This document shows, one piece after another, positions 22,405 to 25,553 of a stretch of 26,372 nucleotides of DNA (positions are counted from its first letter, which is position 1; each line of letters begins with the position of its first letter). Both the position numbers and the translations under genes were made by a program. Source of the stretch: an uncultured Thermus sp. (GTDB lineage Bacteria > Deinococcota > Deinococci > Deinococcales > Thermaceae); assembly GCA_947085095.1 (NCBI GenBank), contig CAMTVD010000019.1, forward strand, positions 1 through 26,372, in the 5' to 3' direction. The notes below the pieces were generated by a model. That model was given only the letters and a program-made list of their open reading frames with translations, ran no database searches and was not told the DNA's origin.

Positions 22405-22732
22405 ACCAGTAAACATACCGCCCCTCCTCGGGCAGGAGGGCATACCGCCACCCCTCCACCCGGTACCAGCCCAGGTCCCGCCAGCGCCCTGGCCGCTCCC
22501 GCAGGAAGACCCGCAAGGGGATGCTCTCCCGGTGGGCCAGGAGGAGGCGGAGGTTGCCCCCAAGGGGCTCCTGGTGCCCCCGCTTCCCCTCCCCCATGTA
22601 GAGGATGCGCCCATCGGGCAAAAAGACATTCCGGTAGCCCGACTCCCCCCGGTCCACCAGGAGGCTTTGCCGACCGATCCCCCTGCGGGTGCCGTGGAAG
22701 GCAAAGACCTCGCTCCAGCTCAAGCTTGACAC
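22367..22732 (-). CDS. Stand-alone SRA/YDG-like domain protein
   Basis: GYRN...ILYMGEGKRGHQ...GGNLRL...PLRVF...LGWYRV matches the SRA-type YxGEG..GxQ...GN pattern. Confidence 0.65.
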   Translation of the reverse strand: MSSLSWSEVFAFHGTRRGIGRQSLLVDRGESGYRNVFLPDGRILYMGEGKRGHQEPLGGNLRLLLAHRESIPLRVFLRERPGRWRDLGWYRVEGWRYALLPEEGRYVYWFTLAPGGCAGGP

Positions 22733-22754
22733 TTCCCTTTCCCCCGGCTATCAT
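22726..22754 (+). promoter_or_regulatory. Sigma-A promoter of tRNA operon
   Basis: TTGACA (22726-22731), 17 bp, TATCAT (22749-22754). Confidence 0.85.
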
Positions 22755-22797
22755 CCTAAGTGCCCGGTCGGACGCCCCCGACCTGGCGACAACCCCA

Positions 22798-22874
22798 GGC
22801 CCCGTGGTGTAGTTGGTTAACACACCCGCCTGTCACGTGGGAGATCGCGGGTTCGAGTCCCGTCGGGGCCGCCA
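22798..22874 (+). tRNA. tRNA-Asp(GTC)
   Basis: 77 nt, acceptor GGCCCCG/CGGGGCC, anticodon loop CTGTCAC, GGTTCGAGTCC, encoded CCA. Confidence 0.97.
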
Positions 22875-22875
22875 G

Positions 22876-22951
22876 GCCGAGGTAGCTCAGTCGGTAGAGC
22901 ATGCGACTGAAAATCGCAGTGTCGGCGGTTCGATTCCGCCCCTCGGCACCA
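22876..22951 (+). tRNA. tRNA-Phe(GAA)
   Basis: 76 nt, acceptor GCCGAGG/CCTCGGC, anticodon loop CTGAAAA, GGTTCGATTCC, encoded CCA. Confidence 0.97.
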
Positions 22952-22953
22952 GA

Positions 22954-22986
22954 CGGCCTGCCCCTTTTGGGGCAGGTCGCTTTTTG
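22954..22986 (+). terminator. Intrinsic terminator of tRNA operon
   Basis: CCTGCCCC-TTTT-GGGGCAGG stem followed by CTTTTT. Confidence 0.85.
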
Positions 22987-23135
22987 CTACAATGCCCCCG
23001 AAGGGGGTGGGAAGCTGAGGAGACCTTCGCCATATTGGGGTGCCATTTGAGGTAAGTATTCGCTGAGGCATTGCGGTAGGTGTTTTTTCGGTATTGCCGG
23101 TGTATTCCAGGGGCGCATTAAAGCTGGATGTTTTG

Positions 23136-23181
23136 GGGCCCGCGTGGGGCGCTTAACCCCCACGGGCCCGCGTATTTTTTA
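23136..23181 (+). terminator. Putative intrinsic terminator in the intergenic region
   Basis: GGGCCC(GC)GTGGGG...CCCCACGGGCCC then GCGTATTTTTT. Confidence 0.55.
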
Positions 23182-23343
23182 GGCCATTCCCCCCTCAAAA
23201 CCCCGAGGCTTCCCCCCGTTGCTCTAGCCCCGCTACCCAGCCGGCACCGGGTGTGCTAAGCTGGGTAGCGTAGGTCTGATCAAATCCAAACTATTGTGAC
23301 CCTATAGGCATTTTTTGCCGTGCTGATACCTATTCTTCCCCTC

Positions 23344-23372
23344 TTGACAGTATTGACCCGACCCCCTAAAGT
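23344..23372 (+). promoter_or_regulatory. Sigma-A promoter of the small peptide gene
   Basis: TTGACA (23344-23349), 17 bp, TAAAGT (23367-23372). Confidence 0.75.
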
Positions 23373-23428
23373 GAAAGACAAGCAAACGGGGCCGACCCCC
23401 CGGAAGCGGAGGAAAAGGAGGGATGAAG

Positions 23429-23518
23429 ATGAAGAAGCTGATCGCTCGTGTGTTGGTGCTTCTCGGCAGCTTGATCGCGCTTGGGCTCGCGGCTGGGGCC
23501 GCTACGCGCTGGGAGTAA
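23429..23518 (+). CDS. Small hydrophobic peptide MKKLIARVLVLLGSLIALGLAAGAATRWE (29 aa), candidate signalling-peptide precursor
   Basis: AGGAGG (23416-23421) 7 nt before ATG 23429 (alternative ATG 23423), upstream promoter, immediate terminator, signal-peptide-like architecture. Below the ORF-track cutoff. Confidence 0.85.
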   Translation: MKKLIARVLVLLGSLIALGLAAGAATRWE

Positions 23519-23522
23519 GGGG

Positions 23523-23550
23523 GAGGCCAGCTAAGCTGGCCTCTTTATTT
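23523..23550 (+). terminator. Intrinsic terminator after peptide gene
   Basis: Perfect 9-bp stem GAGGCCAGC-TAA-GCTGGCCTC followed by TTTATTT. Confidence 0.85.
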
Positions 23551-23553
23551 CTC

Positions 23554-23583
23554 TTGCCTTGGCGGAGGAGGGTTTGCTACACT
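23554..23583 (+). promoter_or_regulatory. Putative promoter for HD-GYP/DUF5317 genes
   Basis: TTGCCT, 18 bp, TACACT, 9 nt before ATG 23593. Confidence 0.55.
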
Positions 23584-23592
23584 CAGGCCACC

Positions 23593-25008
23593 ATGGCCTT
23601 TAGACGCCTGGAGCTTCCTCCGCCGCGGGTGCTCCTTCTGGTCCTCTCGGCCTTCCTGGGCTTCCTGGCCCTGGAGGGCTTCCTGCTTTGGGCCTACGGG
23701 GGCACCCCTCTCCGCTTGAGCCTCCTGGACCTGCTTTTCTGAGGCGCGCTCATGCTTTGGAGCGTATTTGTTCGCGTCCCGCTCCCCTTAAGCGCCAGCA
23801 TGAGCCAGTTCTTTATCTTTGCCTTGGCTTTAGTCGTTCTTACGGCTCCATGGGTCTCGCCCCTGTTGAGTTTTGCCCTCCAGTGGGGCCGAAAAGTTTG
23901 GTACAAGGAGCTCTTCAACAGTTCCCAGATTGGCATGGCCACCGCCCTGGCGGCCCTGGCCTGGCAGTTCTTCCAGCAGAACCCCGTCTACCTGGGTCCC
24001 TGGAATGTGTCGGCAGGGGTGGGCATCGCCACCGCTTCCCTGGCTTTTTTTGCGGTCAACACCACTTTGGTGACCACCGCCATCCACCTGGCCAACAACG
24101 TTCCCTGGCGCGAAGTGTGGCGCAAAAACTACAGATGGCTCGCCTCCAGCTACCTCCTCCTCTCCCCCCTCGCCCTCCTCCTGGCCCGGGCCTATGAGAC
24201 GCCCCTCCTGGGCAACTGGGGCGGGTGGACGGTGCTCTTCTTCCTCATCCCCCTCTACTACAGCCGCTTCTACTGGGACGAGAAGGTGCGTCTGGAAGCG
24301 GCCTTTGACGCCACCCTGGAAACCCTCATGCACGCCCTCGAGGCCAAGGACCCCCAGACCCGCCTCCACTCCGAGCGCGTGGCCGAGATCGCCCGGGACC
24401 TAGCCCGGAAGGTCAAGAACGGGGACGAAGCCTACGCCCAGGCCGTCTACCGGGCAGCCCGGCTCCACGATATTGGCAAGATCGGCATCCCCGAGTTCGT
24501 CCTCCTGAAGCCCGGCTCCCTCACCCCTGAGGAGCGCCAGGCCATAGAAAAGCACCCCGAGTTCGGAGCGGAGATGCTGAAGCCCGGGGCCAAGGTGGCC
24601 TTTGAGCCCCTGGTCTATAACATCATCCTCTACCACCACGAGCGCTGGGACGGCCGGGGCTACCCAAAGCGGCTCGCCGGGCACGAGATTCCCGAGGAGG
24701 CCCGCATCGTGGGGCTGGCCGACGCCTACGAGGCCATGACCGCGGGTCGCCCCTACCGCAAGGCCAAGACCCCGGAGGAGGCCTTGGAGGAAATGCAGGA
24801 ACTATCCGGCATCCAGTTTGACCCCCGCCTGGTGGAGGCCTTCATGGAGCTCTGGCAGGAAGACCCCATCTGGCGGGACCGGGAAGCCTACCTCAAGGCC
24901 AAAGCGGAAAAGGAGGGATCCGTATCACGCTTTATCTTGCCGCCGCTCTCTTCGCCCTGGGCCTCGCCCTCGCCCTCGGAGTCCGACCAAAGGACCTCGG
25001 AGGAATAG
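23593..25008 (+). pseudogene. Multi-TM sensor HD-GYP cyclic-dinucleotide phosphodiesterase, interrupted by in-frame TGA at 23740-23742 (may restart at ATG 23752)
   Basis: One frame from ATG 23593 through LLF*GALMLWS. Several TM segments, then EAKDPQT..HSERV, LHDIGK, HHERWDGRGYP, ADAYEAMT, RPYR. Confidence 0.85.
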
Positions 25009-25553
25009 AGCTAAAGGCGGCCTGGGCCTTCCTCCTGGCGGCCCTCCTCGAGGGGGGCCTGGCCTACGGCACCTACCGGGGCCTCTTCCCCCCCGAGGTG
25101 GCGGGCCCCTTGGCCAAGGCCTTGGTCCTCCTCCTGGTGGGCTACGGCCTTTACCAGAACCGCCACCTGAAAAGCCTCTACCTGGTCCTCCTGGGGCTGC
25201 TCCTGAACGCCCTGGTCATCTTCGCCAACGGCGGGCACATGCCCGTGAGCCTCCCCGCCCTGCGCCAGGTAGGCCTGGGGGAGCTGGAAAACCTCTTGAG
25301 AAACCGGAGCGATGCGGTCCACACCCTTCTGGACGAAACCACCCGCCTGCCCTTCCTGGGGGACGTGATCCCTCTACCCCCCCTCGTCAAGGTGATTAGC
25401 CCCGGAGATGTCCTCATCCTCCTGGGCATCGTTGGGGTGGTGGTGGAGGGAGCCCTGCGGGCTGGGGGTTTCCGCCTCCCCCTGCGCCTCGCCGCCCTTC
25501 GCGTGCTGGCCTACCTGGTTCTGGTCCTCCTCCTCCTCGCCTGGCGGGCCTGA
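24924..25553 (+). CDS. DUF5317-like integral membrane protein
   Basis: LNALVIFANGGHMPV, H..LDETTRLPFLGD, ISPGD motifs. The frame is open with hydrophobic sequence from ATC 24924, 7 nt after AGGAGG; the first canonical start is GTG 25098. Confidence 0.8.
   Translation: MTLYLAAALFALGLALALGVRPKDLGGIELKAAWAFLLAALLEGGLAYGTYRGLFPPEVAGPLAKALVLLLVGYGLYQNRHLKSLYLVLLGLLLNALVIFANGGHMPVSLPALRQVGLGELENLLRNRSDAVHTLLDETTRLPFLGDVIPLPPLVKVISPGDVLILLGIVGVVVEGALRAGGFRLPLRLAALRVLAYLVLVLLLLAWRA

Follow-up and report, generated by a model that had tools for sequence, protein, structure and literature searches.

A conserved 29-codon gene beside a MASE9-HD-GYP phosphodiesterase gene in Thermus and its relatives, and its possible role as a membrane partner of the sensor

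Introduction

What is the function of a gene of 29 codons whose product has the layout of a signal peptide and ends five residues after the apparent cleavage motif? The question arises from a stretch of 26,372 nucleotides of an uncultured Thermus sp. (here called the window), in which an earlier note, made from the sequence alone, had drawn attention to a short open reading frame (ORF) at positions 23429 to 23518. The note proposed that the product either releases a short Trp-containing tail as a signal or acts as a ligand within the membrane.

The neighbor of this ORF encodes a protein with a MASE9 domain, a domain defined by Galperin and Chou (bioRxiv 10.1101/2021.11.05.467447), who, in the available part of their text, name a single, poorly expressed member as studied. 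Nothing in that available text refers to a small gene as partner, nor does it use the terms "small protein," "neighborhood," or "DUF5317." A full-text literature search found no paper on DUF5317, the domain encoded by the next gene. Searches on Thermus small proteins, transcription start sites, HD-GYP proteins, c-di-GMP membrane proteins, and peptide signalling, covering titles and abstract openings, returned nothing on the 29-codon gene, nor did they bring up any micro-protein described as the partner of an HD-GYP enzyme; the gene could be listed in tables of Thermus transcriptomes or proteomes. We found no published description of the three genes as a module, and the mechanism proposed below is our own suggestion.

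Results

A 29-codon gene with its own expression signals

The peptide gene lies on the forward strand and runs from the ATG at 23429 to the TAA at 23516-23518 (23429..23518); its frame, its length, and its end are all conserved. Another in-frame ATG, at 23423, would give an alternative product of 31 residues. The Shine-Dalgarno sequence AGGAGG (23416..23421, forward strand), which is invariant or nearly so in the Thermus alignment, stands 7 nt from the ATG at 23429 and only 1 nt from that at 23423, and because of this spacing we prefer the 29-residue reading. Three further observations agree with this choice: the equivalent MKK is the start in other genera, one Thermus locus has the first ATG changed to ATA with the second ATG kept, and a profile drawn from every genus is 29 positions long.

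Upstream of the gene is a sigma-70-type promoter, TTGACA-17-TAAAGT (23344..23372, forward strand), with the -35 hexamer at 23344-23349, the -10 hexamer at 23367-23372, and a consensus score of 10/12. Both hexamers are nearly invariant among the 23 aligned Thermus loci. A consensus scan found just two promoter-like sites between positions 22500 and 24500, versus 0.2 +/- 0.4 in shuffled sequences. The -35 hexamer is abutted by an A/T-rich run (23324..23337, forward strand) that is conserved in the Thermus alignment and is possibly a UP-like element; comparable runs precede the -35 hexamer in other genera and in a second family. The 5' untranslated region (UTR), of about 50 nt, folds into a hairpin, CGGGG-loop-CCCCG (23387..23402, forward strand), whose stem is invariant in Thermus. 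In other genera a hairpin of different sequence occupies the same position, and this element may contribute to mRNA stability. An intrinsic terminator (23520..23552, forward strand) follows the stop codon, with a 12-pair stem at 23520-23546 and then a T-run; its hairpin differs in sequence between Thermus clades while holding the same position, and every genus examined has one. The layout common to all members examined is an A/T-rich stretch, a -35/-10 pair, a 5' hairpin, a Shine-Dalgarno sequence, 29 (rarely 28 to 30) codons, and a terminator. The full set of signals that the earlier note had listed (TTGACA-17-TAAAGT, AGGAGG at 7 nt, and the terminator) was confirmed by the sequence, the ORF listing, and the consensus scan. 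Judged by these signals, the peptide gene is a transcription unit of its own and is probably strongly expressed.

A riboswitch or known small RNA in the 5' UTR was considered and rejected, given a UTR of only about 50 nt and the lack of an Rfam match there; Rfam 15 gave nothing over 23373-23550.

Metatranscriptome contigs from four hot-spring studies (X1 to X4) span the ORF and both flanks. Such contigs are blind to transcript ends, strand, and DNA carry-over, and their coverage is compatible with expression of the peptide gene, not proof of it. Summed contig depth is higher over 23410-23493, probably because several strains share this conserved segment. One X3 contig carries 19 letters that mismatch the window just before 23390; the letters resemble sequencing adapter, the position is not that of the expected start site, and we base no conclusion on this contig.

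Distribution and selection

Searching 40 relatives at the DNA level turned up the segment from promoter to stop in 22 of 24 same-genus genomes, at 81 to 93% identity; the 16 genomes that belong to other families of the order gave no match. Counted from the second ATG, 22 of the 23 Thermus loci, the window included, have an undisrupted frame of 29 codons, and the remaining locus has a 2-nt deletion. By profile search, the peptide is encoded in 62 of 68 genomes of the window's family (E < 1e-4), which added four more genera, and in 60 genomes of a 201-genome sample of the phylum, all within two families. Seven of nine genomes of the second family were positive by profile, and one more was recognized by eye. 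The other three families of the phylum yielded nothing credible in the 92, 41, and 2 genomes sampled; three weak matches in other families (E 0.0017 to 0.0032) sit inside long ORFs. A wider locus search confirmed at least three loci, all from Thermus, which added nothing to the range, and a tblastn search of plasmids found no match to the peptide.

Among 47 unique 29-codon coding sequences from the two families, 27 of the 29 third codon positions vary, versus 18 of the 29 second positions, and the pairwise-mean NG86 dN/dS ratio is 0.28 overall, 0.24 for codons 2 to 24, and 0.41 for the tail. The frame is under purifying selection. Members of the family have also been predicted by gene callers elsewhere: 21 protein clusters of 25 to 61 residues matched at E <= 0.001 among 1.84 billion representatives, and in the ESM Atlas only unnamed clusters of 29 to 30 residues matched. 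All matches in the 21 clusters reach the W-x C terminus, and the longer clusters are extended at the N terminus only; therefore, the ORF is not the start of a longer protein, and a 5' piece of a larger gene is ruled out, since no relative has any cargo beyond W-x. The claim of the earlier note that the micro-gene stands alone, rather than being part of something larger, is borne out by frame conservation (22/23 Thermus loci), dN/dS (0.28), and the C-terminal ends of the clusters (21/21 at W-x). We regard it as virtually certain that the ORF is a real gene. No Pfam family covers it, and NCBIfam gave only a 14-bit match versus a cut-off of 156. The possibility that the peptide is a subunit of a solved Thermus membrane complex was rejected, as no PDB chain matched (best E 0.14).

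Sequence and predicted properties of the peptide

The consensus of 37 family members is MKKLxxKVLxLxxSLVALGLAAGAxxxWx. A core of L, A, L, G, and A is invariant in these sequences, and M-K-K, one more L, A-A, and the Trp are present in at least 90%. The charge pattern consists of M-K-K followed by K/R at position 7. The best 19-residue window has a mean Kyte-Doolittle hydropathy of 2.37, and an uncharged stretch of 17 to 22 residues is found across the 37 members, from which a single membrane-spanning helix is predicted; in 7 of the 37 the stretch is just 17 residues, which is short for a membrane span. The tail measures 5 residues in 34 of 37 rows by automatic count. The remaining three rows hold a second G-A and, read by eye, also have 5 residues after A-A-G-A. 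The Trp occupies place 4 of the tail in 33 of the 34 rows reached by the automatic count, the other four tail positions vary between species, and no member has Pro at +1 of the putative cleavage site. This comparison, for which the earlier note had called, leaves its description standing (basic N terminus, hydrophobic core, A-G-A motif, and short Trp-containing tail), with the refinement that the tail has 5 residues after A-A-G-A and the Trp at place 4.

Several features resemble those of a signal peptide, namely, a basic n-region, a hydrophobic h-region, and small residues at -3/-1 (invariant G-A, near-invariant A-A). An exported mature domain is absent: every member has 5 residues after the putative site, and no relative has a longer C terminus. 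Such a layout is compatible with a signal peptide (n-h-c, A-x-A) and equally with a short membrane helix that has its Trp at the interface. The core is conserved across two families more than a generic signal peptide would seem to need, and this residue-by-residue conservation suggests specific packing of the helix.

The peptide gene belongs to a three-gene module

Downstream of the peptide gene on the same strand is a gene (23593..25008) for a predicted c-di-GMP phosphodiesterase, with matches above the curated cut-offs to Pfam MASE9 (PF20972; 74 bits) and HD_5 (PF13487; 141 bits). In six genera from both families, all nine downstream ORFs examined encode proteins of 457 to 504 residues with MASE9 (PF20972) and HD_5/HD-GYP (PF13487). 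All 28 orthologues compared keep the HD, HHE, and GYP motifs unchanged, and because of this the enzyme is probably active. A third gene (25098..25553, forward strand) encodes a DUF5317 membrane protein (PF17248; E 3.9e-33); a DUF5317 gene also comes next after that of the enzyme in 10 of the 15 further loci tested (10 of 16 ORFs). The peptide gene, the MASE9-HD-GYP gene, and the DUF5317 gene form a conserved module. The adjacent HD-GYP gene, which the earlier note had not seen, is the most telling fact about the locus.

The enzyme gene lacks a Shine-Dalgarno sequence. A putative extended -10 element, TG-n-TACACT, read from the sequence at 23575..23583 on the forward strand, lies 9 nt before its ATG; in the Thermus alignment the element is conserved as TGTGCTATCCT or TTTGCTACACT, and a similar element stands at the equivalent place in other genera. 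This suggests that the mRNA of the HD-GYP gene is leaderless or near-leaderless, with a promoter that overlaps the terminator of the peptide gene.

Of the 61 places that encode the peptide, 60 have a MASE9 match downstream, on the same strand and contig, with a median spacing of 166 nt, and the lone exception is at a contig end, with its MASE9 match opening another contig. This count joins the separate peptide and MASE9 searches, whose 201-genome draw is presumed to be the same from equal sample sizes and per-genus totals. The distribution of MASE9 parallels that of the peptide, with matches in 53 of 56 genomes of family f1, 8 of 9 of f4, 0 of 92 of f3, 1 of 41 of f2, and 0 of 2 of f5, the single f2 match being to a different protein of 1066 residues. 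Upstream neighbors differ: tRNA-Asp and tRNA-Phe genes precede the peptide gene in 19 of 22 Thermus loci (at 22798-22951 in the window), and a GT2 glycosyltransferase gene does so in three other genera.

Five genomes of the family without the peptide were examined. Four of them, one only 69% complete, have only paralogous HD-domain matches, at 40 to 46% identity; in the fifth, one deletion took the peptide gene together with an estimated 110 codons or so from the beginning of the enzyme gene. The peptide and an intact enzyme are thus jointly absent in 5/5 genomes, a count that, like the other co-occurrence counts, overstates the evidence because the genomes are related and not independent; we estimate roughly three or four independent co-loss events. 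One genome (G070) has two diverged copies of the whole peptide-enzyme pair. The dependence between peptide and sensor is thus one seen by comparative genomics, in adjacency (60/61), joint absence (5/5), and duplication of the pair, and we consider a functional link between the peptide and the enzyme to be likely.

In a few Thermus genomes, second, weaker-matching MASE9 places without a peptide gene occur, at L104 (G012:C1), G002:C25, and G011:C1:936508. The one in G012 encodes a protein of 418 residues that is 44% identical to the window enzyme over both domains; no small hydrophobic ORF was found before it, and another ORF of 418 residues precedes it. Therefore, the peptide goes with one group of orthologues and not with every MASE9 protein.

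Decay of the module

In the window itself, an in-frame TGA at 23740-23742 splits the enzyme gene into ORFs of 49 and 418 residues in the same frame, and the MASE9 profile match (23626-24273) spans this stop. All relatives examined have Trp (TGG) at this codon, which is invariant in the 28 orthologues, and the metatranscriptome contigs read G at 23742; the TGA is therefore either a strain-specific nonsense change or a sequencing or assembly error. The peptide-enzyme pair may be non-working in this genome. Elsewhere, the enzyme gene is interrupted in two Thermus species by insertions of about 0.9 kb (G003, L006) and about 1.3 kb (G020, L115), with the peptide gene intact in both; G002 has a frameshift in the peptide gene as well as a disrupted enzyme gene. 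Because of this damage, the module is dispensable, decaying in several Thermus lineages and often lost.

Discussion

A possible partner of MASE9 within the membrane

What, then, does the peptide do? The reading that we favor, with about even confidence, is that of a small peptide, spanning the membrane once, whose action there would modulate the MASE9-HD-GYP phosphodiesterase. The Lys-rich N terminus would lie in the cytoplasm, followed by one helix of about 19 residues and the 5-residue tail, with the Trp at the outer interface. The peptide would be the dedicated partner of the downstream enzyme, and perhaps of the DUF5317 protein as well, and its helix could pack on the transmembrane MASE9 domain through a face of small residues (S/A, A, G/A-x-A-A-G-A). 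How active the cytoplasmic HD-GYP domain is, and thereby the level of c-di-GMP, would then depend on how much peptide the membrane contains or in what state. While the gene, its expression signals, the selection on it, its adjacency, and its joint presence and loss with the enzyme are observed, membrane insertion, orientation, direct binding, and an effect on enzyme activity are inferred.

According to the available part of the paper that defined it, MASE9 has eight membrane segments, its ligand is proposed to bind within the membrane, and its periplasmic loops are short and poorly conserved (10.1101/2021.11.05.467447). With a core conserved residue by residue and a gene that stands beside that of the MASE9 sensor in every genome encoding the peptide, it is an obvious candidate for a partner within the membrane. 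The suggestion of an intramembrane ligand in the earlier note has in this way gained support of an indirect kind, from the adjacency to MASE9, the proposal made for MASE9 ligands, and the conservation of the core. Complex prediction was carried out with MASE9 residues 1 to 250 of the closest intact orthologue and the peptide, with alignments for both. The score was 0.44 versus 0.00 for the best control, which is weak by the calibration of the tool, and the controls were not chosen as hydrophobic helices; the pLDDT of the partner was at least 59, and runs shared at least 68% of contacts. In the calibration, 116 of 157 solved complexes attained the mark, as did 2 of 215 mismatched pairs, and at scores of 0.60 or less only 18 of the 157 solved complexes passed, along with both passing mismatches.

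Some features sit less comfortably with a membrane partner. Separate promoters with a strong terminator between the genes would be unusual for stoichiometric subunits and would suit a signal precursor just as much. A signal-peptidase substrate would look like this peptide, with its n-h-c layout, invariant A-x-A, and tail fixed at 5 residues, which counts against the membrane-partner reading.

Alternative explanations

These same features lead to the strongest alternative, which we hold to be unlikely though still a live one: that the 29-mer inserts into the membrane, that signal peptidase I cuts after A-G-A, and that the pentapeptide thus set free, x-x-x-W-x, serves outside the cell as a cue for the MASE9-HD-GYP protein or for another receptor. 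It corresponds to the released-tail idea of the earlier note. The basic n-region, an h-region of about 13 residues, and the invariant A-A-G-A are what such a precursor would have, as are a tail of fixed length with a near-invariant Trp at place 4, four species-variable positions, and no Pro at +1. A strong promoter and terminator of its own beside a sensor gene would suit it as well, and the higher dN/dS of the tail (0.41) is expected of a diversifying signal. Against this, conservation of the core far exceeds what export needs. A chain of 29 residues is complete before it leaves the ribosome and is too short for co-translational targeting. The short, poorly conserved periplasmic loops described for MASE9 in the available part of its source (10.1101/2021.11.05.467447) also speak against an external cue. 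In its most specific form, in which the cleaved, species-variable pentapeptide would be a diffusible autoinducer read by the MASE9-HD-GYP protein, the idea seems to us improbable. If true, it would describe a peptide quorum-sensing circuit feeding directly into c-di-GMP turnover in a diderm thermophile, and the shortest known dedicated signal precursor, without any pro-region.

The remaining explanations are less likely than a signal precursor. The peptide might act in the membrane or envelope without any relation to the HD-GYP enzyme, the adjacency being inherited gene order. The separate transcription units would allow this, as would the intact peptide genes beside the broken enzyme genes of the window genome, G003, and G020, but the adjacency in 60 of 61 places holds over two families while the upstream neighbors differ, the two genes are jointly absent in the 5/5 genomes examined, and G070 has duplicated the whole pair, and we accordingly give this explanation little credence. 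It is highly improbable that the ORF is a cis-acting leader, in which translation would govern read-through of the terminator into the HD-GYP gene and the peptide itself would be irrelevant. In Thermus the terminator stem begins 1 to 4 nt past the stop codon, so that a ribosome at the stop codon would occlude the 5' arm of the stem, but this distance is not conserved (about 20 to 40 nt in other genera), the core amino acids are under purifying selection (dN/dS 0.24), and the downstream gene has its own -10-like element by its start codon. A type I toxin, that is, a hydrophobic membrane-damaging peptide checked by an antisense RNA, would be similar in size and hydrophobicity and can nevertheless be nearly dismissed, given the strong Shine-Dalgarno sequence and promoter, the fixed chromosomal position, the family-wide vertical conservation beside one partner gene, and a minus strand with no promoter-like site in 22500-24500 and no Rfam match.

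Comparison with known systems

For a peptide that modulates MASE9 in the membrane, the nearest analogues are modulators of the MgrB type, and for a pro-peptide they are the Phr proteins; neither is homologous. In enterobacteria, MgrB acts on PhoQ, and SafA and MzrA act on sensor kinases. The likeness lies in a very short single-pass membrane protein with a proposed action on the membrane part of a signalling enzyme. In contrast to the case described here, where the target would be a c-di-GMP phosphodiesterase, their targets are histidine kinases, and these proteins are about 47 to 127 residues long, with functional periplasmic or cytoplasmic parts. Their genes are not known to be fixed beside the sensor gene, unlike the peptide gene. 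They share no sequence similarity with the peptide, which has no Pfam or NCBIfam match.

The Phr peptides of the Bacillus Rap-Phr (RRNPP) systems are likewise encoded by a small gene beside a receptor gene, with a Sec-type signal sequence and a strain-variable C-terminal pentapeptide. Their precursors are about 40 residues long with a pro-region before the pentapeptide, whereas here nothing separates A-x-A from the 5-residue end; their receptors in the Firmicutes are cytoplasmic TPR proteins reached through Opp import, whereas the neighbor here is an integral-membrane sensor. KdpF, AcrZ, and CydX resemble the peptide in being proteins of about 30 residues with one helix, bound in the membrane to a larger protein. 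They are usually co-transcribed or co-regulated with their complex, whereas the peptide gene carries a promoter and terminator of its own. Here the larger protein would be a signalling enzyme, and no PDB chain matched.

The downstream gene is a member of the MASE9-HD-GYP proteins as described in 10.1101/2021.11.05.467447. The peptide is apparently limited to two families within a single order. MASE9 ranges more widely, being present in Thermotoga (by a control search) and, according to the available part of the same paper, in Streptomyces; the control genome of Thermus thermophilus has it too.

Significance and upstream sequence features

MASE9 is an orphan sensor domain, and a 29-residue peptide is a concrete, synthesisable candidate for its ligand or modulator. 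Thermus offers genetically tractable strains and proteins suited to structural work. As this locus further shows, conservation over two families is possible for a gene of 29 codons that belongs to no curated family. In Thermus thermophilus, c-di-GMP binds PilF, the ATPase of the pilus and of DNA uptake (PMC11731258, available in part). This raises the possibility that the module, through c-di-GMP, could bear on motility, biofilm formation, or natural transformation.

The region upstream of the peptide promoter has features of its own. The terminator of tRNA-Phe (22954-22979) is followed by an ORF-poor stretch (22980-23180) with a second strong hairpin at about 23137-23170 and then TATTTTTT, which hints at another short transcript; no Rfam match was found in this spacer. 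The whole spacer between the tRNA genes and the promoter, about 370 nt, can be aligned at 66 to 75% identity in nine Thermus loci; most others align only partially. A 10-bp inverted repeat, GCTACCCAGC ... GCTGGGTAGC, lies at 23231-23270, just upstream of the promoter, and its 3' arm is conserved at the same position in most Thermus loci. In genus g14 (e.g., L072, L075, and L076), the -35 hexamer of the peptide promoter is enclosed in the loop of an inverted repeat. The arms of this repeat vary in a compensatory manner between species, and it could be an operator or a DNA or RNA hairpin.
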